Of a stretch of 64,000 nt of DNA, positions 29,884 to 46,606 are shown one piece after another. A program made the position numbers and the translations under genes. Origin of the DNA: Candidatus Heimdallarchaeum aukensis (lineage in GTDB: Archaea; Asgardarchaeota; Heimdallarchaeia; Heimdallarchaeales; Heimdallarchaeaceae). Under the pieces are notes generated by a model. It was not told where the DNA came from, made no database searches, and worked only from the letters and a program-made list of their open reading frames with translations. The stretch covers positions 2,080,001 through 2,144,000 of the forward strand of contig CP084166.1 of assembly GCA_021513695.1 (NCBI GenBank), given 5' to 3'. Each line of letters opens with the position of its first letter. Position 1 is the first letter of the stretch.

Positions 29884-30822
29884 GTGAATGACAAAGTACT
29901 AAAGGTAGGAAAAGAATCAGTACCCGTAACTATACTTGGGTTAGAAAATGCTGGAAAAACCACTCTAATTGAGAGGTTAAAAACAGGTTCTTTTGTAGAA
30001 GATACAACTCCTACATTAGGTGTAAGCTTTGAATCTTTTAAAGTAGGTGATACTTTATTCAAGATTTTTGATGTTGGGGGACAATTTGTTTATCGAAAAC
30101 AGTTTTGGGTAAATTACGCATCAAATAGCTATGGTATTATCTTTGTATTTGATGCCTCCGATAAAGAAAGAACAACAGAAGGAAAAGAGTGGTTCTGGTA
30201 TCTAATAGACAATATTGAAATTGAAGACCGAATAGTTGTAGCTTTTTTTGCTAATAAAGCCGATTTAGAATGCATGTCAATAGAAGAAATTATTGAAGCG
30301 CTTGAACTCCCAAGGATGAGTGAGCACTCAAAGATTAGTTTCCAAATATTTAAGACAAGTAATAAAACAGGCGAAGGAATAGACGCTGCATTAGATTGGT
30401 TTACAAACAAACTAAAACAAATAGGAAAAGAAAAAATAGTCCATCCAAAAGGTTTGATTATAAGTACAACACTAGGCAGAGTGCAGTTATTCTTAGATCT
30501 TGAAGGATTATCACAACAAATATCGCAAATCAGAGAATTATTAGCTCAAATATTTAAATATGAATCAGCTACGCTCAAAGAAGAAAAATTATCTACTATT
30601 TCAAACGAGAATATAAAACTCGTATGTCACGAAAGAAGTGACGTGATAATAACAATGATCATAAATCCAGAAGAATCTCATGTAGAAGCTCAAAGATATA
30701 TTGAGCAAGTGTATGAATACTTAGAAAAGAAAACAGCAAAAACGAAAGATGAGCTTATAAAAGGAATATTAAACTTACTAAATATTAAAGATGAAAGTAA
30801 AGTTAAGATAATTACAATGTAA
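29884..30822 (+). CDS. Arf-family small GTPase (Asgard ArfR-like) fused to a roughly 130-aa C-terminal alpha/beta domain (possibly roadblock/longin-like); GTG start
   Basis: G1 GLENAGKTT; interswitch TTPTLGVSFESF; G3 DVGGQ; WVNY..GIIFVFDASDKER; G4 NKAD; G5 region KTSNKTGEGIDAALDWF. These match the Arf1 blocks GLDAAGKTT/TIPTIGFNVE/DVGGQ/NKQD/SGDGLYEGLDWL. Confidence 0.7.
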   Translation: MNDKVLKVGKESVPVTILGLENAGKTTLIERLKTGSFVEDTTPTLGVSFESFKVGDTLFKIFDVGGQFVYRKQFWVNYASNSYGIIFVFDASDKERTTEGKEWFWYLIDNIEIEDRIVVAFFANKADLECMSIEEIIEALELPRMSEHSKISFQIFKTSNKTGEGIDAALDWFTNKLKQIGKEKIVHPKGLIISTTLGRVQLFLDLEGLSQQISQIRELLAQIFKYESATLKEEKLSTISNENIKLVCHERSDVIITMIINPEESHVEAQRYIEQVYEYLEKKTAKTKDELIKGILNLLNIKDESKVKIITM

Positions 30823-35789: not shown

Positions 35790-36389
35790 ATGTCCAACAG
35801 AATGAATCAATTATTGCTCTCAATCCGAAGACGATTGGGAAAGCCAGAAGTTTCTATATTGATTATGGGAAATGATACTCCAGCAGCTAGGAACAGAGTA
35901 AAACTATTGAATGCAGAAATCTCAATTGATGATTTTCTCTTAGATGACTATCTTTCTAAGCTTCCAGTTGAAGACAAGTTTAAGTTTAAACCTAAACTTT
36001 TCGAATCATTTGAGGGGATTTTGTACCTTATCGATGCTACAAAAGAAGATATGATTAAGCATGAGCGAGCTTTCTTCTGGGAAAAAATCGTTTGGAACGA
36101 GGATATAAGAGAGAAGCCAATTGCAATTTGTGCTTATAATAGTAATTTACAAGGCTCTTTAACCAGTGGAGAACTCATAGAGAATCTGTCACTTGTTAGA
36201 TTAACAGATAGGGTTTGGAAGTTATTTGAGGTTGGAGACGTTAACGACTTATTAAGCGCATTAAACTGGCTTAAGGAAGCGATATGGATGGGTTGGACAT
36301 TAGATTGGGAAAGAAAAGAAAGTCTTAAAACTAAACTTTCTCAAAAAAAGATTGTTATTGTAGATAAGAAAAATGATAATGAATCTTAA
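35790..36389 (+). CDS. Arf-like pseudoGTPase (Arf-type N-terminal amphipathic helix and C-terminal blocks retained; P-loop, switch II and NKxD degenerate)
   Basis: Manual alignment to Arf1: [14 protein letters not shown] vs RILMVGLDAAGKTT (Lys lost); [12 protein letters not shown] vs [22 protein letters not shown] vs [31 protein letters not shown] vs [34 protein letters not shown] vs GDGLYEGLDWL. Confidence 0.55.
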   Translation: [199 protein letters not shown]

Positions 36390-36427: not shown

Positions 36428-37981
36428 ATGGTCAATACAGTTGAGGAATTAATAAAAACTGGCTATAAAGGGTATTCAGTTAGGCATATATTAATGAATA
36501 ACGAATTTAGAAAACGTGTAATCAATGATCCAAGTGTTAGAGGAAATGAAGACGCAAAGAATTTAGTCATGGATAAGCTTGCTGTCGGAGGAAAAGTACT
36601 TATCACAGGTCCTACAGGAGAAGCTAAAACGCTATTCAGTCGTATTCTCCTAGATCACATAGTTCGAGAAATTAATGATCATAAGTATCATATTGATTCC
36701 TGTCCTTTCCTTGAGGACGCAGGATACATTATTGATGTTATCGAGCAATTTGAAGTTGATCCGTTCAATGGAATAAAGGTTTTACAATCTCTTTGTCCTT
36801 TCTGTAGAGCTAAAATTGAAAATGCTTTGAGTGATGGGAAAGGAGATGTAAAATTAGATAATACAGCAAGTGTTCTTAAAACTAAACCCGTTGAATTCAA
36901 AGAAAAATTATTAAAAATCGGTGTAGAAAAAACTGTTGTACGAAAAGCACAACTTGACCCAAGAACAGACCCTGAAAGTCTCTATATGCTATTAGCTGGT
37001 GTAGAAAATCTAGAAGAACTGTTTGGAAAGGAAACTTCAACAACTTACACTCCAACATCACATAAAGTAGGTGTGCTTAGTAAAGGTTTTATTGTAGTTA
37101 ACGAAATTCAACGTCTTCCCCTATCCTTGCTCGAAGCACTGATGGGCTTTCTTGAAGACACAACTTCAATAAAGTATAATCTTCAAGGAGAACCTGTTTA
37201 TATTGATGGAGCAATGATATTTACTTCTAATGCTCCCTTAACAGTATTTGGAGAAGAATCACAACCTATTATCAATCGTATTCCAGAAGTTCTTTGGCCT
37301 GCAAGATCCGTGGAAAGTAGAAGTCAAATTGTTCGAGATATGTTTAGAGAACAAATTACGCTTTCTAGACAAAAAATAACCGCAAATCCAAGCATTGTTC
37401 AGTTGTATGATCGAGAAAAAAGCTCGAAGGATTATGTGAGTAAATTAGCCATAGATTTCCTCGCATTCATTGGAAATAACTCTTTACCAGAAGCTCTTAA
37501 AAAAGGACGAATTCGTTCTGAAAGTAGAGTTCAAAGATTAGACTTTTACGCAGGATTAGATGAAATCCATGATCCTCAAAGAAATCCACATATCGATTTA
37601 CGTACAACATCAAACATTGTGGGTAGCGTGTTGCTCAATAGAGAACGAGAACTTCAAGACGAAGAATATAATGTTGTTACAATAGAACATGTAAGAAAAG
37701 TATTAAACGATTACGATATTCCTTTAGCAATGATAAATGATGCACTACAGGAAATAAAAATAAAACTTAGATCCAACCTTAAAAGCGCGGGAATGGCTGT
37801 AAAAGCAGAAGATATAAGTGAAGATATATCAAAGATGAAGGCATTAAGTGACGAAGAATTATCCGAATTGATTATCAATTACGAAAAACTAGAACGATAC
37901 TATGAATCAGATGTTTTACCTAAAATCGTTGAACAACTCAAACCGAGTTATGAAGCTCTATTGAAGGTAGACTATATCTAA
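36428..37981 (+). CDS. MoxR-family AAA+ ATPase-like protein with Walker B Asp replaced by Asn and a roughly 100-aa Cys-containing insertion between Walker A and B
   Basis: Walker A GPTGEAKT matches the MoxR pattern GxPGxAKT. Walker B and sensor region FIVVNEIQRLPLSLLEALMGFLED matches MoxR LLADEINRAPPKTQSALLEAMQE. Inserted cysteines are SCPF ... CPFC. Confidence 0.55.
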   Translation: MVNTVEELIKTGYKGYSVRHILMNNEFRKRVINDPSVRGNEDAKNLVMDKLAVGGKVLITGPTGEAKTLFSRILLDHIVREINDHKYHIDSCPFLEDAGYIIDVIEQFEVDPFNGIKVLQSLCPFCRAKIENALSDGKGDVKLDNTASVLKTKPVEFKEKLLKIGVEKTVVRKAQLDPRTDPESLYMLLAGVENLEELFGKETSTTYTPTSHKVGVLSKGFIVVNEIQRLPLSLLEALMGFLEDTTSIKYNLQGEPVYIDGAMIFTSNAPLTVFGEESQPIINRIPEVLWPARSVESRSQIVRDMFREQITLSRQKITANPSIVQLYDREKSSKDYVSKLAIDFLAFIGNNSLPEALKKGRIRSESRVQRLDFYAGLDEIHDPQRNPHIDLRTTSNIVGSVLLNRERELQDEEYNVVTIEHVRKVLNDYDIPLAMINDALQEIKIKLRSNLKSAGMAVKAEDISEDISKMKALSDEELSELIINYEKLERYYESDVLPKIVEQLKPSYEALLKVDYI

Positions 37982-38006: not shown

Positions 38007-39392
38007 ATGCCCCATCGAATTTTTTTACTTACGGAATCAGAGTTTAGAGACCCTCTACAAAATTACGGCGATGCTGAGTTTATATTAGACTTTGAAGGTG
38101 CTGCTGAATTATTAAAACTTTGGCGTAATCCTCACCTAGGTAGGAGCTCTAGAGAAGGAGCTGTACTATCTTTAGGTGCAAAAAACGCTGTTGCAATCCA
38201 AAACATACTCCAAAAAATAATGACAACATATCTTACTGAAGCAGAAGAAGAGAGACTAATTAATGAACTAAAAATATTACAGTTTATTGGAGATAGAGTC
38301 CTCCCTGATGTTCTAGAACGTGTAAACAAGAACGAACTTCAAACAGTGGACGATATTATTCGATACATCCAGAATTTACTACGAGAACTGAAGTATGAGG
38401 GAACAGTTGATCTTAACCTTCTTGCAGATAAGTTGAACTCTCTTAAAGACATTGTTGATTTAGAAATTACAGATGCATACGGAAGAAAGAAGAGGATAAA
38501 ACGAGAAGAAGTGATGGATGTTTTAGGTAACATCCTTGGGCATTACCTTTTAAAGCAAATCAATGTTCTTCCTATTGATGAAGTTCAAAAACGCCCAAGA
38601 GGAACAATTAGACTTCGAGAAACCTATAAAAGTGCAGTGCTTAGTTCGCAATCAATTCCTCCAACGCGCGTAAAACAAGAAGATATTATCCGTGTGAAAA
38701 AAGATAGAAGAAGTTTAGTATATTTCTTAGTGGATTTAAGCCAATCAATGCAAAAAGAAGTGTTTGAGGGGGGAATGACAAGGTTAGATGGAGCTCTATT
38801 AACTGCTCTAAGTCTATATTACTACTTTAAAACCGCCAATAGGAGAAAAAGAAAGAGATACGATATGTTTCAACTTGCAGTAGTCCCTATTGTTCGAAAC
38901 CCCTTTGTAGTAGATGATGATACAAAAATGGAAGATCTTTTATTGAATGCTAAAGCCAAAGGAAAGACACATACTGTAAGCAGTGTTTTGAAAGCTATTG
39001 AGCATGCTAAAGCACAGTATAAGCATAAAAATATTGATGTTCAACTTACAATTGTAACGGATGGTATGCCAAACATACCTGTTTATCCATTTAATTACAA
39101 AATTAGTTCTTCATTAAAGAATTATTTCAATTCAATCGATACTAAAACCAGTCCAGAGACAATAGAGTGCTTGTTACAACTTAATGCCATATTTAAACAC
39201 TTAAAATCAGATCCTAATAGAAATTGGAACATAAGTTACTTTTTGATGGGTACAGAAGCTTTGAGAAAAAAGGAAATTTATAGTCATACGTATCAAATGT
39301 TGAAAGGTATAACTAAACCAATTTTAGTAGATCCTGCACAAATTAACAAACTTGGAGAGCAAGTACTACGGGAGAGTATTCACCATGCATAA
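38007..39392 (+). CDS. von Willebrand factor A (VWA) domain protein with a MIDAS motif
   Basis: The C-terminal half has LVYFLVDLSQSM (DxSxS MIDAS) and a downstream IVTDGMPN. A helical N-terminal half precedes it. It lies 25 nt after the AAA+ gene. Confidence 0.65.
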   Translation: MPHRIFLLTESEFRDPLQNYGDAEFILDFEGAAELLKLWRNPHLGRSSREGAVLSLGAKNAVAIQNILQKIMTTYLTEAEEERLINELKILQFIGDRVLPDVLERVNKNELQTVDDIIRYIQNLLRELKYEGTVDLNLLADKLNSLKDIVDLEITDAYGRKKRIKREEVMDVLGNILGHYLLKQINVLPIDEVQKRPRGTIRLRETYKSAVLSSQSIPPTRVKQEDIIRVKKDRRSLVYFLVDLSQSMQKEVFEGGMTRLDGALLTALSLYYYFKTANRRKRKRYDMFQLAVVPIVRNPFVVDDDTKMEDLLLNAKAKGKTHTVSSVLKAIEHAKAQYKHKNIDVQLTIVTDGMPNIPVYPFNYKISSSLKNYFNSIDTKTSPETIECLLQLNAIFKHLKSDPNRNWNISYFLMGTEALRKKEIYSHTYQMLKGITKPILVDPAQINKLGEQVLRESIHHA

Positions 39393-40977
39393 AGAAGAAT
39401 TAGCTGACATCATTGATGTGTATCTGCAAGCAAGAAAAGATTTCTTAGAACTGGTAGGTGAAACACCAGAGAATTATAGAATACTTATTTTTCTTAACCC
39501 TGATTTACATATTTCTGTTAACAGGGTGATTGAAAGTGCAGGAACTCCCCAGGCAATCTTAACTGCTGAAGAAGTTGTTCATCTACAATCAGCAAGAAAT
39601 AATGAATATATGCCGTTAGGGAAAGAAACAGTTTTTAACAGCATACCCACACTAATTTATCTTTCAACACCTCGTTATGAATTGACAGAGGAAGAGAAAA
39701 TAACTTTGAGAATAATGATAGTTCATGCTTTTGCTCATGCCTATATGAATGAAAAAACAGAATCCAATAATCCTAAACAGTTATCTCGCATATACCAACT
39801 AGATGTAATTTTAAAAGAATTATTCCAAAATAATGCTTACAAAATTAACGAAGAAACAAACAAACAGTTGATGTGGACTTGGCAGTACTATCAAGATCTA
39901 ATAAGCGTTATACGATTGTTTGTTGAGGCTGGAGTACAAGACTTTTATTCTCCTCCTGAAGAAGCAAGAAAATACACTTTATTCAACAACTTTTCAATTG
40001 AGGTTATTAAGGTTCTAAAGGAAAGAGCAAAAGAATCAAGAAAGAAACATCTCCACGATTTAATCGATGAAGGATTTGCATTCTATATTCAAAGGATGCA
40101 TTTAGATTATTTGAATAAAAATAAACAAGTCCCCAAGAATCTTCCTAAAGAACTTAAACCCTTTATGGCTCCCCCTGTTGGAAAAATAAGTTTGTTCTTA
40201 GTTGATAAACTAAAATTGGCTATAAGCGAACAAATAGAAAAGGAGAAAAAGGAGAGCCTTTCGTCAGAAGAAATTGAAAAAAGATTGTTTGATAAACTGT
40301 TTAGCTTTAGGACTGATTTAGAATTTCTTGAGACTTTTGATTGGCAAGAGCTAAAAAATTGGGTGTCTGAACAAAAAAGAGCTCATTCAGAAAAAGTGTT
40401 AAAGGATTGGCATGTAACAACTACCAATTTCACTGATATTTGGTCTGTTTATGCTTATGGTTGGACACAACTGGAAAATTACATCAAAAAGATATATAGA
40501 AAGAAATACAGTACTTTTGGACAATTGATGGATGATAACCCAAAAATAGAATTCAAGGGATATTTAACTGTTGATGAAAAGAAAGTTTATGTCTTTGAAA
40601 TCAATAACGAAGGTGTGGGACTAGATCAATTGGTTATTTTGCATAATCACATGGCTTTATATCGTGAAGATTTTGCTACCATACTTCCTGCTTTTGCAGA
40701 CATTATCGCTTTCAAAAAAATCAGAGGTATGCACGTTGCAACTTTGTTTGCTGTCCATAAAATTAGTAGAAAACAACCAATTAGTCCCTATAACTTGCCT
40801 ATTGTGACTAGAGCTGTTCAAGTAACGAAAAGAAAGGATGCATACAAAACTGAACTCGATGAAGAAAAAGAGAAAATGGAAGTTGAACGAGTAGACTATA
40901 CACATTTGAAGAAACTCTCTCAACCTCAAAGAAACGCTATAAGTTATCTAATAAAGGAAGGAATGTACTATGTTTAA
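39352..40977 (+). CDS. hypothetical 541-aa mostly alpha-helical protein in the AAA+/VWA operon
   Basis: ORF overlapping the neighbours on both sides. No recognizable catalytic motif. Confidence 0.4.
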   Translation: MESKYYGRVFTMHKEELADIIDVYLQARKDFLELVGETPENYRILIFLNPDLHISVNRVIESAGTPQAILTAEEVVHLQSARNNEYMPLGKETVFNSIPTLIYLSTPRYELTEEEKITLRIMIVHAFAHAYMNEKTESNNPKQLSRIYQLDVILKELFQNNAYKINEETNKQLMWTWQYYQDLISVIRLFVEAGVQDFYSPPEEARKYTLFNNFSIEVIKVLKERAKESRKKHLHDLIDEGFAFYIQRMHLDYLNKNKQVPKNLPKELKPFMAPPVGKISLFLVDKLKLAISEQIEKEKKESLSSEEIEKRLFDKLFSFRTDLEFLETFDWQELKNWVSEQKRAHSEKVLKDWHVTTTNFTDIWSVYAYGWTQLENYIKKIYRKKYSTFGQLMDDNPKIEFKGYLTVDEKKVYVFEINNEGVGLDQLVILHNHMALYREDFATILPAFADIIAFKKIRGMHVATLFAVHKISRKQPISPYNLPIVTRAVQVTKRKDAYKTELDEEKEKMEVERVDYTHLKKLSQPQRNAISYLIKEGMYYV

Positions 40978-41719
40978 AAGATGGTTAATGATAAAAAAAT
41001 TAGGAAGCGAAATAGACTTAGATAGACTAAAAGCTGTTCTTTTTTTAAGAAAGAAAGGGAAAGACAAGGACATCAATAATCTTTTGCCACTTTTAAGTGA
41101 CAAGGATTGGAATGTAAGAAACGCTACAGCATTGACTATAATTAAACTCGTTAATCTTTATCCAGAAAAAAAAGAGGAAATCCTACTAAAGCTTCATCAA
41201 TTACTTGAAAAGAGATCCTTAGCTACAAAACTGTCTGTATTGGAAATCCTGGGACAGTTAAGAGACTATTCCTCGAAAGATTTTATCAAAAAAATTATTG
41301 AAGAAAGTGATTATGATTTACAATATGCAGCTATTAGAGCAATAGGTTATCTTGATGACGTTGACATTTTATCTTCTTTGAAAGAAGTGGTTTACTCAAA
41401 AGATTACATCACACGAAGAGCAGTGATCTTTTCAATATTGCGAATAGTTAATTCAGTTGAAGAAGAAAAGAAAGTTGAACTCCTAACTCCTCACATCCAC
41501 TTATTAATTCAAGTTTATTTAGAGTTAAATGAATTGGGCGAGGTAATCTATAAAATCCTAGATTACGGAGATCCAGAGCAATTTCCAGGAATGAAACCGT
41601 ATTCAGAATTTGAGATAATCAGATTAACTTCATTAATTGAACAATACGATTATCGAGTTCCAGTCTATAAGAACTTTGCAAAAATAATTTATCCTCTTTA
41701 TTTTCCTTTAAATAGTTGA
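40970..41719 (+). CDS. HEAT/PBS-lyase-like repeat protein
   Basis: Repeated roughly 30-aa units of the form LLxLLxDxDWxVRxxAxxAL (LLPLLSDKDWNVRNATALTIIKL; AAIRAIGYLDDVDILSSL; RRAVIFSILRIV). Confidence 0.55.
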   Translation: MFKRWLMIKKLGSEIDLDRLKAVLFLRKKGKDKDINNLLPLLSDKDWNVRNATALTIIKLVNLYPEKKEEILLKLHQLLEKRSLATKLSVLEILGQLRDYSSKDFIKKIIEESDYDLQYAAIRAIGYLDDVDILSSLKEVVYSKDYITRRAVIFSILRIVNSVEEEKKVELLTPHIHLLIQVYLELNELGEVIYKILDYGDPEQFPGMKPYSEFEIIRLTSLIEQYDYRVPVYKNFAKIIYPLYFPLNS

Positions 41720-42815: not shown

Positions 42816-44798
42816 ATGCCATTAAACATCGAAACTCCTTTTACTCCTAAAGGAGACCAACCTAAAGCTATTGAACAATTAGTGGAAGGAATAAAAAAAG
42901 GGTATAAACTACAGACACTTTTAGGGACTACGGGAAGCGGGAAAACTGACAGCATAGCATGGGTCATTGACCGTCTTAAACTTCCCACTTTGGTTATTGC
43001 CCCTAACAAAACTCTCGCTGCTCAACTTTATGGTGAGTTTAAAGTTCTTTTTCCTTCAGCTCGTGTTGAGTATTTTGTTAGTTTTTATGATTATTATCAA
43101 CCTGAAGCTTATCTTCCTTCCAAGGATCTTCTTATTGAGAAAGATTTTGATATTAACGAAGAAATTGAACGCTTACGCCATTCTGCCACCGAAGCATTAG
43201 CTACTCGCGATGACGTGATAGTTGTTGCTTCTGTTAGTTGTATTTATGGCATTGGAGACCCTGCAATCTATCGAGCAAAGCGTTTAGAGCTTGTTGTTGG
43301 ACAAGAATTTGATAGAGAAGAGTTAATGACACAACTCATCAATAACCGATATGAACGTAACGATATTAATCTAACTAGAGGAAAGTTTAGGGTTCGGGGA
43401 GACACTATCGATATTTTTCCTCAGTATGGAGATTATATTTATCGTGTAGAATTTTTCGGAGATGAAATAGAAAGATTAACTTCCAGAGATCCTGTTACAT
43501 ATAACCAAGTTCGTGAATTCCAAGAACTCACCTTTTATCCTGGAACACATTATCTTACTCGTGATAATTTATTTGACCAAGCTTTAGCTGATATAGAACA
43601 AGAGCTGGAAGAACGATTGGCTGAATTAAAAAGTCAAGGTAAACTTGTTGAATATCAAAGGCTCAAACAACGGACGAAATATGATCTAGAATTACTAAGA
43701 GAGACAAAATATTGTCCTGGAATTGAAAATTATTCTCGTCATTTAGACAGAAGAAAAAAAGGAGAACCTCCTTATACTCTGATGGATCATATGCCTGATG
43801 ATTTTCTTTTGGTAATTGATGAGAGTCATCTTACTATTCCACAAATAAAAGGAATGTTTGGTGGAGACTATTCTCGAAAAAAGAATCTAGTAGATTATGG
43901 TTTTAGATTACCTAGCGCTTTTGATAATAGACCTTTAAAATTTGATGAATTTAAGAAATATATGAAAAAAGTCATCTTTACTAGTGCAACTCCTGGGCCT
44001 TATGAAATTGAGCACTCTGAACAGATAGTGGAGCAGATTATTAGACCTACAGGGCTTGTAGATCCTAAAATTGAAGTAAGAAAAACAGAAGGGCAAATTG
44101 ATGACCTATTAGGAGAAATAAAAAAACAAGTTAGGAAGGGTGGTAGAGTACTTGTTACCACATTAACAAAAGACAACGCTGAGATGCTTTCGGATTATTT
44201 AATTGATAACGGAATCAACTCTGTCTATTTACATCATGAAGTAGATACATTAGACAGAATAAACATATTAAGGGACTTAAGAATCGGAAAATATGATGTC
44301 ATAGTTGGGATTAATCTTCTTCGTGAAGGACTAGACCTTCCAGAAGTAGGGTTAGTCGCTATTCTTGATGCAGATAAAGAAGGTTTTCTAAGATCTAAAA
44401 GCTCTCTAATTCAATTAATGGGTAGAGCAAGTAGAAACGTTAGCGGGAGTGTTATTTTGTATGCTGATAAAATTACAGATTCTATGAAAGAAGCTATATT
44501 TGAGAATAACAGACGAAGAAGAATACAGATAGAATATAATCGAAAACATGGAATTAACCCTCAAACAATAAAGAAAGAAGTGAAATCCATAGTAGAAACT
44601 TTAATGCAAGTGTCTCAAAAGGAGGAAGAGGAAGAGATAACTATTGATAGAAGTGAACTCACAGTAGAAAAGATAATGGCTATTATCAATGAACTAAAAG
44701 AGAAAATGGCAGAAGCTGCTGCCAACCTAGAATTTGAAAAAGCTGCTATTTACAGAGATAAAATACGTGAAATTGAGAAGCAGGTAGATACTAAATGA
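42816..44798 (+). CDS. uvrB: excinuclease ABC subunit B
   Basis: UvrB N-terminal signature (TPFTPKGDQPKAIEQLVEGI), helicase Walker A GTTGSGKT, and a C-terminal UvrB/UvrC-interaction helix (ANLEFEKAAIYRDKIREIE). Confidence 0.9.
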   Translation: MPLNIETPFTPKGDQPKAIEQLVEGIKKGYKLQTLLGTTGSGKTDSIAWVIDRLKLPTLVIAPNKTLAAQLYGEFKVLFPSARVEYFVSFYDYYQPEAYLPSKDLLIEKDFDINEEIERLRHSATEALATRDDVIVVASVSCIYGIGDPAIYRAKRLELVVGQEFDREELMTQLINNRYERNDINLTRGKFRVRGDTIDIFPQYGDYIYRVEFFGDEIERLTSRDPVTYNQVREFQELTFYPGTHYLTRDNLFDQALADIEQELEERLAELKSQGKLVEYQRLKQRTKYDLELLRETKYCPGIENYSRHLDRRKKGEPPYTLMDHMPDDFLLVIDESHLTIPQIKGMFGGDYSRKKNLVDYGFRLPSAFDNRPLKFDEFKKYMKKVIFTSATPGPYEIEHSEQIVEQIIRPTGLVDPKIEVRKTEGQIDDLLGEIKKQVRKGGRVLVTTLTKDNAEMLSDYLIDNGINSVYLHHEVDTLDRINILRDLRIGKYDVIVGINLLREGLDLPEVGLVAILDADKEGFLRSKSSLIQLMGRASRNVSGSVILYADKITDSMKEAIFENNRRRRIQIEYNRKHGINPQTIKKEVKSIVETLMQVSQKEEEEEITIDRSELTVEKIMAIINELKEKMAEAAANLEFEKAAIYRDKIREIEKQVDTK

Positions 44799-46606
44799 AT
44801 ATTGTTTCTGATATAGAAAGATTACCTACTGGTCCTGGAGTATATTTGATCAAAGATTCAGAGGGAAATGTAATCTATATCGGAAAAGCTAAAAATCTAA
44901 AAGATAGAGTTAAACAACATTTTTCTGAAACATCTTCAGAAATAAAGAAAGAACGAGCTATTCAAGAACAAGCTTACAATATAGATTTCTTAGAAACAAG
45001 AACAGAAACAGAAGCAATATTGCTTGAAAGAAGATTGATTAAAGATATTAAACCTAAACTAAATGTTAGAAGTAAGGATGATAAATCCTCTCTTCTTATC
45101 CGTATTAGTAAAGAAGAACCATTTCCTCAATTATATGTAGTAAGAGAAACAGATCCTCACGTAGAAGGGAGCATCTATTTTGGTCCTTATGGGTACGACA
45201 GGAAACTAAGGGATACAGTAAAACTAGTTTTGAAACTATTCCCTATAGCTAATTGTGGTGAAAAATTATACAAATATAGAGAAAAGAAAAGTGTAAACCG
45301 ATGTATGCGTAAAAGAATAGGTCAATGTATTGCTTGTGATAAGAGCGTGAGTCCAGAGAAATATAATCAGATAGTTGAAAATGTGATAAACTTTTTAGAA
45401 GGAAATGTGGGCGCACTTCTAGATTCCTTGGAAAAAGAAATGTGGGAAGAAGGAAAAAAAGAAAATTTTGAACGTGCTGCAGTTCTACGCGATCTAATAA
45501 ATTCTGTTAGAAAAATAGTCTCCATTCAGAAAGAAAACAATTTTGACGTAGATGATATAGTTGTAATAGCAACCAGAGAAGAGCAAGAAGTATTATCCTT
45601 CTGTAAAATTGAAATTAAAAATAAAAGAATCAATCGTATAATTTCAGATTCTATCGTTCTTGAAACAAAAAGTGAAAATTTTACTCTCTCTAATTTATTG
45701 TCTTTAATAGGTACTAATCCTTCTGAAATAGACCATTTAGTTGTAGATGAGGTTTTTATTAAAAAAATCCAAAATGATCTAAAAGTTAAACTAATTACCC
45801 CTGATAGTAAAATATTGAAAGATGTATTCACTATAGCAAAAAGGAACGCTTTTAACGAGCTTGCACGTTATTTTAGCTCAAAAACACGTGAGAAAAACAT
45901 CAAAAAAGTATTAGAAGATATGAAAGTAATTCTAAAACTCCCTAAGCTCCCTATAATTATACACGGATATGACATTTCTACTCTTGGAGGAAAACACTCA
46001 ACAGGCTCATGTGTTGTGTTCAAGAACGGGAAACCTGAAAAAAGATATTATAAACAATTTAAAATAAGACAAGAATATTCTGACCCAAATGACTACGCTA
46101 TGATGCGTGAAGTGTTAAGAAGACATTATTCAAATTACAATGATTTTGATGAACCCCAACCTGATCTAATTTTACTTGATGGAGGAAAAGGTCAACTTAA
46201 TGTTGCAGTTAAAGTATTAAAAGAATTAAAGTTGGACTTGCCTTTAGTTTCAATAGCAAAAAAAGAGGAAGAACTTTTTGTTCCATGGGATACAAATCCT
46301 GTAGTCCTTCCAAGAGAATCTGAAGTGTTGAAACTTCTTCAACAAATAAGAGATGAAGCTCACCGTTTTGCCATTCAATACTCAAAACAACTGAGAACAA
46401 GAAAATTAGGTCGTTCTACTTTTGAAAAAATAAAAGGAATAGGACCAAAAAAAGCTGTATTGTTGAACACCTATTTTGATAATTTACAGGATATAGGAAG
46501 TGCCTCTGTTGCTGAAATAATGAAATTAATTAAAGTAGATGAGCAAACAGCGGTTCAAGTTTTAAATTTAGCAAAAAACTTGACAAATTCAGTTTCTTTT
46601 GAATAA
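44795..46606 (+). CDS. uvrC: excinuclease ABC subunit C
   Basis: GIY-YIG N-terminus (GPGVYLIKDSEGNVIYIGKAKNLKDRVKQHF), a UvrBC-binding region and a C-terminal HhH. It overlaps uvrB by 4 nt. Confidence 0.85.
   Translation: MNIVSDIERLPTGPGVYLIKDSEGNVIYIGKAKNLKDRVKQHFSETSSEIKKERAIQEQAYNIDFLETRTETEAILLERRLIKDIKPKLNVRSKDDKSSLLIRISKEEPFPQLYVVRETDPHVEGSIYFGPYGYDRKLRDTVKLVLKLFPIANCGEKLYKYREKKSVNRCMRKRIGQCIACDKSVSPEKYNQIVENVINFLEGNVGALLDSLEKEMWEEGKKENFERAAVLRDLINSVRKIVSIQKENNFDVDDIVVIATREEQEVLSFCKIEIKNKRINRIISDSIVLETKSENFTLSNLLSLIGTNPSEIDHLVVDEVFIKKIQNDLKVKLITPDSKILKDVFTIAKRNAFNELARYFSSKTREKNIKKVLEDMKVILKLPKLPIIIHGYDISTLGGKHSTGSCVVFKNGKPEKRYYKQFKIRQEYSDPNDYAMMREVLRRHYSNYNDFDEPQPDLILLDGGKGQLNVAVKVLKELKLDLPLVSIAKKEEELFVPWDTNPVVLPRESEVLKLLQQIRDEAHRFAIQYSKQLRTRKLGRSTFEKIKGIGPKKAVLLNTYFDNLQDIGSASVAEIMKLIKVDEQTAVQVLNLAKNLTNSVSFE

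Follow-up and report, generated by a model that had tools for sequence, protein, structure and literature searches.

Heimdallarchaeia encode a distinct PrkA-like AAA+ protein with an invariant Walker B asparagine in a conserved four-gene cassette

The stretch of DNA analyzed here, referred to below as the window, comprises 64,000 nucleotides (nt) of contig CP084166.1 (positions 2,080,001 to 2,144,000, forward strand) from Candidatus Heimdallarchaeum aukensis (GCA_021513695.1) and has a GC content of ∼33%. Its plus strand carries, at nt 36428 to 37981, a gene for an AAA+ ATPase of 517 amino acids (aa), which we describe as a PrkA-like member of the helix-2-insert/pre-sensor-1-hairpin group. The gene is followed in the same cassette by genes for a VWA protein with a metal-ion-dependent adhesion site (MIDAS), a zincin-fold pseudo-peptidase, and a HEAT-repeat protein. 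A first-pass annotation, made from the letters alone, had described the AAA+ protein as MoxR-like, with an Asn in place of the Walker B Asp and a Cys-bearing insertion between Walker A and Walker B.

The Walker A element of AAA+ proteins, GxxxxGK[ST], was found in the window protein as the P-loop GPTGEAKT (residues 61 to 68, nt 36608 to 36631 of the plus strand), the Lys67 of which is kept in 101 of 101 homologues. The suggested fit of this motif to the MoxR pattern GxPGxAKT held for the terminal AKT but not for the Pro, which occupies position 2 rather than position 3. The Walker B motif reads FIVVNE (residues 221 to 226, nt 37088 to 37105, plus strand) and departs from the hhhhDE consensus, the Asp being replaced by Asn and the Glu being retained in all 107 homologues compared (the window protein and 106 aligned relatives). 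Nucleotides 37088 to 37117 (ttt att gta gtt aac gaa att caa cgt ctt) translate into FIVVNEIQRL, with Asn225 encoded by AAC at 37100 to 37102 and followed by the retained Glu226. Further along the same strand lie the polar sensor 1 residue, Asn268 in FTSNAP (nt 37229 to 37231), and, after strand beta4, a probable trans-acting arginine finger, Arg284 in PIINRIPEV (nt 37277 to 37279). N225, E226, N268, R284, R293, and R298 do not vary in any of the 107 sequences, and R392 is likewise invariant. Asn268 aligned with the sensor 1 Asn of the ClpC1 D2 domain and, by way of a distant relative that we call P0121, with sensor 1 of MoxR and ChlI. With the P0121 stretch AINDRL as a bridge, Arg284 aligned with QVDRF of MoxR and LLDRF of ChlI. 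An AlphaFold2 model (predicted local distance difference test score, 78.8; predicted template modeling score, 0.81) has the alpha-beta-alpha core and helical lid of AAA+ proteins. In this model, a beta-strand formed by residues 221 to 224 immediately precedes N225 and E226 and is followed by a helix, a beta-hairpin (residues 248 to 259), and a strand ending at N268; the nearest solved folds were RavA, BchI, and MoxR.

Five independent lines agree that N225 is the equivalent of the Walker B Asp, as judged from alignments and from the predicted fold. Comparison of the Heimdall family profile with P0121 by hhalign (probability, 97.3; E value, 2e-11) placed GFIVVNEIQRLP opposite GILFVNELGKLP, with VVNEIQRLP paired with LFVNELGKLP. 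In a phmmer search of P0121 against solved structures, the P0121 Asn fell on the Asp of the MoxR protein CHU_0153 (2r44; ILADEVNR), of ChlI (6l8d; ILYVDEVNLL), and of RavA (VFLDEIWK). Within P0121's own small family, the same column is occupied by N in 2 sequences and by D in 6 (FVNE versus FVDE or FFDE). A broadened profile aligned the N225 stretch with the ClpC1 D2 stretch VLFDEIEKA...IFTSN. The earlier claim that an Asn stands at the position of the Mg-coordinating Asp is thus borne out by the alignments to MoxR, RavA, ChlI, and ClpC1 together with the modeled strand at 221 to 224, and none of these alignments pointed to another residue as the true Walker B Asp. Retention of the Asn by orthologs, which had been proposed as a check, was found throughout, and since N225 is invariant in 107 of 107 sequences, it results neither from chance nor from an error of sequencing or assembly.

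The insertion follows strand beta2 and ends before the approach to Walker B (residues ∼90 to 213, nt 36695 to 37066, plus strand). There are 158 residues from K67 to N225, compared with ∼62 in E. coli RavA, so that the ∼100 extra residues reported initially are indeed present. All full-length homologues have the insertion, and PrkA proteins have related ones, which rules out a misassembled or fused region. In the AlphaFold2 model, the insertion forms a helical bundle (residues 99 to 162) followed by a beta-hairpin (residues 165 to 176), which would correspond to the helix-2 insert. Inside the insertion lies a Cys triad, C92, C123, and C126 (nt 36701 to 36703, 36794 to 36796, and 36803 to 36805, plus strand), in the stretch SCPF...LCPFC (residues 91 to 126). 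Within the Heimdall family, the three Cys occur together in ∼97 sequences and are jointly replaced (SSS, SSA, or SSV) in 5, with no case of partial loss. Because of this all-or-none retention, the triad fits one functional unit, for example a metal site with a structural role, and the possible metal site of the first-pass annotation gains support to that extent. E96 and D97 are invariant in the family, which has no other conserved candidate for a fourth ligand. The signature C-P-x-x-E-[DE]-A...C-P-x-C is common to the Heimdall family, P0113, P0121-P0160, metagenomic PrkA, Thermomicrobium PrkA, and the solved PrkA 9xip (CPMHEEP...LCPVCR). P0117 has a variant of it (CKVREDA...CPDC), and E. coli YeaG has lost the Cys, yet its EDA persists (NPQEDA). 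A putative fourth metal ligand is a Cys in P0120 and a His in 9xip and P0113.

By its AAA+ core, the protein is a member of the helix-2-insert/pre-sensor-1-hairpin group (MoxR, Mg-chelatase, MCM, and NtrC), and within this group profile comparisons place the Heimdall family on the PrkA/YeaG-like branch. By hhalign, the family matched two PrkA proteins over residues 33 to 156 (probability, 98.3%; E value, 1.4e-14) and a six-sequence PrkA profile over the whole core, residues 34 to 291 (96.8%; 2e-10). It matched over its full length a family of P0121-like proteins (99.1%; 1.6e-18), referred to below as the bridge family. An exhaustive HMMER search of 1.84 billion representative proteins returned 22 matches only, and among these were two genuine PrkA proteins with both the AAA_PrkA domain and the PrkA C-terminal domain. 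Of the matches outside the Heimdall family, P0113 aligned over its full length (E value, 3e-18) and has LEEM at Walker B, and P0117 has LNEI. P0121, with VNEL at Walker B, is significant for Pfam AAA_PrkA and touches Sigma54, Mg_chelatase, AAA_3, and AAA_lid_2. For the window protein itself, Pfam and NCBIfam gave nothing above threshold: AAA_5 scored 14.2 bits against a cutoff of 22, and the Sigma54 match also remained below its cutoff. At the level of the family (31 members), weak Pfam matches were found to AAA_5 (29 of 31; best E value, 2e-5), Sigma54_activat (28 of 31), and Mg_chelatase (6 of 31). Not one of the 31 has a match to PF06798, the C-terminal domain of PrkA. Searches of PDB sequences with the single sequence or the family profile gave nothing specific, and the broadened profile alone reached PrkA 9xip. 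Foldseek against PDB gave weak matches to HslU (E > 1e-3; TM score, ∼0.18), which has only the inserted-domain topology in common with the protein and which we did not use. Membership in Mg-chelatase ChlI/BchI was rejected on the Pfam and alignment results, the window protein having no PF01078 match above threshold and no ChlD/ChlH-type partners; a likeness at the level of the fold remains. The B. anthracis PrkA paper places PrkA in AAA+ "Clade III," with characteristic Walker B motifs (PMC13001217). This classification may need revisiting, as in our alignments PrkA-like cores adjoin MoxR, YifB, and ChlI, and PrkA has no Walker B Asp.

The family is confined to Heimdallarchaeia. Among 5.8 billion clustered proteins, 105 homologues were found, most of them full length (∼515 aa), and nearly all of the named ones are proteins from Heimdall, Kari, Hod, or generic Asgard metagenome-assembled genomes (MAGs). 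Most full-length members are 50 to 83% identical to the window protein, and the invariant residues hold down to 36% identity. Among GTDB species representatives, we found 55 loci, all in Heimdall-type MAGs, with the AAA+ gene present once per genome except in one MAG, in which it is split over two contigs. The window is almost identical to Candidatus Heimdallarchaeum endolithica PR6 (CP084167.1), in which the AAA+ protein shows 98% aa identity and a neighboring protein 99%. Literature searches found no description of this family or operon in Asgard archaea. AAA+-VWA pairs are already known as a kind; new here is a distinct, highly conserved, Heimdallarchaeia-restricted family that lacks a profile model, has an invariant Asn, and is encoded in a fixed four-gene operon.

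The VWA partner (461 aa; nt 38007 to 39392, plus strand) has a helical N-terminal half and a complete MIDAS, consisting of D243-x-S245-x-S247 (nt 38733 to 38747), T321, and D352. These residues are invariant in seven of seven partners compared, including the distant L008 (see below). The N-terminus of the protein, MPHRI (nt 38007 to 38021), recurs in 4 of 4 aligned sequences (41 to 74% identity), and a crude scan for the motif recovered it in 43 of 51 loci. This conservation suggests a docking or pore-inserting peptide, or a functional group provided by the N-terminal Pro/His. The third gene (nt 39385 to 40977, plus strand) encodes the zincin-fold pseudo-peptidase of 530 aa, in which HAFAH (H114 and H118) and DEGFA (E229) were recognized; the motif is HAxxH and not the HExxH that, with a downstream Glu on a thermolysin-like fold, defines gluzincins. 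The mechanical ORF (open reading frame) of this gene begins at a TTG at 39352 and would give 541 aa, but the ATG at 39385 is the likelier start: the 530-aa version matches an annotated H. endolithica protein over its full length at 99% and overlaps the VWA gene by 8 nt. The last gene of the cassette (nt 40970 to 41719, plus strand) encodes the HEAT-repeat protein (249 aa; Pfam HEAT_2, E value, 1.1e-12). The order AAA+, MIDAS-VWA, zincin-fold pseudo-peptidase, HEAT was seen, among the 55 loci, in every one that had enough downstream sequence, and it stays constant even where lineages have different genes on either side.

Directly upstream of the AAA+ gene, the window carries a gene for an Arf-like pseudo-GTPase (199 aa; nt 35790 to 36389, plus strand), which matches Pfam Arf with its C-terminal half only (residues 70 to 164; E value, 1.7e-6). 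Its P-loop reads GNDTPAARN and not GxxxxGK[ST], and YNSN stands in place of NKxD, so that the Arf G1 and G4 motifs are both missing. A homologue occupies this place in most, but not all, of the 55 loci. A second Arf-family protein (312 aa; nt 29884 to 30822, plus strand) is encoded 5 kb upstream of the degenerate one; it has an intact P-loop, GLENAGKTT (Pfam Arf, E value, 1.4e-35), and a C-terminal extension of ∼130 residues. The cassette genes lie on the same strand, 25 to 38 nt apart or with 8-nt overlaps. A TATA-like TTATAAA is present ∼30 nt 5' of the first ATG and oligo-T runs follow the HEAT gene, an arrangement that would fit a single transcription unit.

Several further observations concern the cassette and its surroundings. 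A contig of 57% GC (L008/L009; Logan SRR26786796 and SRR26786793) carries a triad of AAA+, VWA, and third-protein genes of 21 to 25% identity, with LEEM at the AAA+ Walker B. The triad is followed by at least four further same-strand genes (730, 509, 324, and 179+ aa) and preceded by a gene of 237 aa, none with Pfam matches. In a Kari-type clade (L004, L013, and L014; P0063, P0060, and P0054), the third protein lacks both the HxxxH motif and the Glu of EGFA (QLLAM/LVGFG), and in part of this clade the AAA+ protein also lacks all three Cys. A strict link between the two losses was rejected, since L014 keeps the Cys and has degraded motifs. Directly downstream of the cassette in the window lie UvrB-like (660 aa) and UvrC-like (603 aa) genes (nt 42816 to 46606, plus strand), and Pfam UvrB and UvrC domains are likewise listed next to the cassette of locus L003. 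This neighborhood was seen only in close Heimdallarchaeaceae relatives and not in L004, L005, L013, or L014. Unrelated to the cassette, intein-containing genes were found within ∼8 kb of the AAA+ gene in L001 (16585 to 19335) and L004 (58 to 2625); the intein hosts in Heimdall loci are a KH/beta-CASP/metallo-beta-lactamase protein and a fragment of an RNA polymerase Rpb1-type subunit.

We consider it probable, though well short of certain, that the AAA+ protein is the ATPase subunit of a machine encoded by four genes, which is specific to Heimdallarchaeia and vertically conserved. Its other members would be the MIDAS-VWA protein as an adaptor, the zincin-fold pseudo-peptidase, and the HEAT protein as a scaffold. 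Sequence comparison establishes the PrkA-like AAA+ ATPase, the presence of all its catalytic elements apart from the Walker B Asp, and its genetic coupling to the MIDAS-VWA protein. In CbbQ-CbbO, RavA-ViaA, BchI-BchD, and midasin, clients are remodeled through a VWA/MIDAS adaptor and ATP turnover. The Heimdall protein may form a ring oligomer that would bind Mg-ATP via Lys67 and Thr68 and hydrolyze it with the aid of Glu226, sensor 1 Asn268, and Arg284 supplied in trans. Asn225 would be expected to coordinate Mg2+ more weakly, through water, leading to a slow or partner-gated cycle. The three Cys, together with a variable fourth ligand, may hold a structural metal, probably Zn, which would staple the insertion onto the ring face, at which helix-2 inserts meet their partners, and the insertion and the helix-2 hairpin could serve as the partner-binding face (for the roles of helix-2 inserts, see PMC7973254). 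The MIDAS of the VWA protein might take hold of a client at an acidic residue, and ATP turnover would then remodel or release this client. Candidates for the part of client, or else of scaffold, are the pseudo-peptidase and the HEAT protein, and the Arf-like pseudo-GTPase may be a lineage-specific accessory.

Some points weigh against this reading. Oligomerization, ATP hydrolysis, metal binding, and contacts with partners are predictions in this scheme. In two lineages (L001 and L002; P0068 and the Hodarchaeota-type P0099), the partner genes do not lie next to the AAA+ gene. No confident sensor 2 was found, the hhalign comparison with the bridge family pointing to the poorly conserved residues 361 to 370, and the fourth metal ligand is not conserved, with H88 replaced by R, Q, N, or K in part of the alignment. 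As to the placement near PrkA, Pfam AAA_PrkA matched only 1 of the 31 members, and weakly (E value, 0.006). In a control comparison against single sequences, the bridge family was about equally close to YeaG, RavA, and YifB, and PrkA-like proteins therefore sit among MoxR/Mg-chelatase-like AAA+ proteins.

Whether a Walker B motif without Asp is compatible with ATP turnover can be judged from the PrkA branch itself. The Asp position is occupied by V in E. coli YeaG (IMEFVEMF) and Cupriavidus PrkA (LLEFVEMF), by I in Thermomicrobium PrkA (LVEFIEML) and the solved PrkA 9xip (IVEFIEIL), by Q in B. licheniformis PrkA (MMEFQEML), by A in P0122 (IMELAEIF), and by P in P0120 (ILRIPELA), and the Glu is kept in all seven. 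The Cys-bearing insertion and the non-Asp Walker B are traits of PrkA-type AAA+ domains rather than a one-off modification. In terms of P-loop chemistry, an Asn is still able to hydrogen-bond a Mg-bound water. B. subtilis PrkA binds and hydrolyzes ATP with a kcat of ∼13 per min, which is seven-fold lower in the K108A mutant (PMC9512850); the Walker A Lys is at position 108 in this protein and likewise in the B. licheniformis sequence. Since B. subtilis PrkA hydrolyzes ATP and its close B. licheniformis orthologue, from which rather than from its own Walker B its Asp-less state is taken, has Gln, the absence of the Asp is compatible with ATPase and, by this analogy, does not abolish it on the PrkA branch. 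Given the strict conservation of Glu226, Asn268, and Arg284 and this ATPase of PrkA, the Heimdall AAA+ protein is most likely a slow or partner-gated but active enzyme. The same evidence counts against a protein that is dead or does nothing but trap. The first-pass annotation had suggested a modified ATPase cycle or a regulatory, substrate-trapping variant. In the latter sense, the protein would be a nucleotide-binding but hydrolysis-dead switch or scaffold that the Asn would lock in an ATP-bound or Mg-poor state and that would serve as a regulatory or substrate-trapping subunit rather than a motor. An invariant Asn at the Mg-coordinating position is what this proposal would lead one to expect, the upstream Arf-like protein is likewise a degenerate NTPase, and degenerate AAA+ modules with structural roles are known from the AAA-like N-terminal domain of BchD and from some ORC subunits. 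We regard it as a real but less likely rival: conservation of the three catalytic residues down to 36% identity is hard to explain without selection for hydrolysis, the ATPase of B. subtilis PrkA, whose close B. licheniformis orthologue lacks the Asp, depends on Walker A, and close relatives in the P0121 family swap D and N with the rest of the motif unchanged.

It seems improbable that the protein is a bona fide divergent MoxR-family chaperone that works with its VWA partner to load a specific enzyme with a metal cofactor or to activate it. The adjacent VWA/MIDAS gene (ORF 38007 to 39392) is a MoxR trait, but the distance of 158 residues noted above is far from the compact MoxR core (∼60 residues from the Walker A Lys to the Walker B Asp), and neither AAA_3 (PF07726) nor AAA_lid_2 was matched. 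Of the label MoxR-like, the Walker B-to-sensor 1 layout and the nearest folds stand, whereas membership in the family does not, with AAA_3 missing and AAA_5 below its cutoff. A minority possibility that we take seriously is that the archaeal cassette is orthologous to the bacterial PrkA-YeaH(DUF444)-SpoVR stress/sporulation triad, minus the C-terminal kinase-like domain of PrkA, and would perform the same task. The AAA+ core is linked to PrkA by hhalign, a bridge-family (P0121-like) gene is followed by one for a VWA protein with a weak DUF444 match, and the genes of the bacterial triad lie side by side in Mesorhizobium, Sphingobium, and Thermomicrobium, with the same order of AAA+, VWA-type, and third protein. 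Moreover, AHACYGH...MNEGWATFWH of E. coli SpoVR/YcgB recalls HAFAH...DEGFAFY of the Heimdall third protein, with a similarly long spacer, and hhalign picks exactly the EGFA/NEGWA helix. These comparisons did not reach significance, however, for either partner (hhalign probability, ≤22% for the VWA protein with YeaH and ≤15% for the third protein with SpoVR). PF06798 is lacking, the HEAT and Arf-like genes are without bacterial counterparts, and the spacing is HxxxH versus HxxxxH. We would entertain only tentatively the broader idea that the AAA+/MIDAS-VWA/zincin-fold triad represents the PrkA-YeaH-SpoVR stress module in its ancient, minimal form, with Heimdallarchaeia retaining a version that lacks the kinase-like domain and having added HEAT and Arf-derived regulators, and with the non-Asp Walker B marking an AAA+ branch that is gated by the VWA partner and not constitutively active. 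An antivirus or conflict system of the AAA+/VWA type on a mobile element is very improbable indeed. Such modules do occur in conflict systems, and the distant relative L008 lies among eight same-strand genes without Pfam matches. However, there was no credible match in PADLOC or PHROG and no relative in 2.9 million viral contigs. The gene moreover occurs once per Heimdall-type genome (one split gene aside), in fixed order and beside housekeeping genes, and its conservation is very high across most full-length members.

The AAA+ protein ranks with the best-conserved "hypothetical" proteins known from Heimdallarchaeia, which among archaea are nearest to eukaryotes. It is without a Pfam or NCBIfam model and belongs to an undescribed operon present in one copy per genome. 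A natural and invariant Asp-to-Asn change in Walker B, together with close relatives that keep the Asp, provides a ready system for probing the role of this residue on the PrkA-like branch. The Heimdall cassette may also give a simpler handle on the long-unexplained bacterial PrkA/YeaG-YeaH-SpoVR module, and its pairing with a degenerate Arf-like protein bears on the recruitment of Asgard small-GTPase paralogues to new roles.

Compared with known systems, the MoxR proteins (RavA, CHU_0153, CbbQ, and NorQ) are without the ∼100 extra residues, the Asn, and the long helical C-terminal extension of the Heimdall protein. The Mg-chelatase proteins BchI/ChlI-BchD, and also YifB/ComM, show no significant sequence match to the Heimdall family itself; ChlI has VDE where the Heimdall family has Asn, and the Heimdall operon is without a chelatase H-type subunit. 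The short PrkA-like proteins of the bridge family (P0121 and P0156-P0162; ∼440 to 470 aa) are homologous over their full length and share the Cys signature and a downstream VWA gene, and two of them also have VNE, whereas most keep VDE. They differ in their 21 to 27% identity to the Heimdall family, in a shorter insertion, in matching Pfam AAA_PrkA, AAA_3, Mg_chelatase, and AAA_lid_2, and in their locus, where no zincin-like or HEAT genes were seen downstream, whereas the Heimdall operon has both.

PrkA/YeaG (PF08298; PDB 9xip-9xir, "Serine protein kinase"; for 9xip, the literature search gave no paper) differs from the Heimdall protein in length, with 630 to 740 aa including PF06798 compared with 517 aa without it, and in its partners, DUF444 and SpoVR, neither of which is demonstrably present in Heimdallarchaeia, to which the Heimdall family is restricted. 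The two are alike in the long insertion after strand beta2 with its Cys signature, in the VWA-type gene that follows the AAA+ gene, and in a non-Asp Walker B in which the Glu is kept, the Asp position being hydrophobic or Gln in PrkA and Asn in the Heimdall family.

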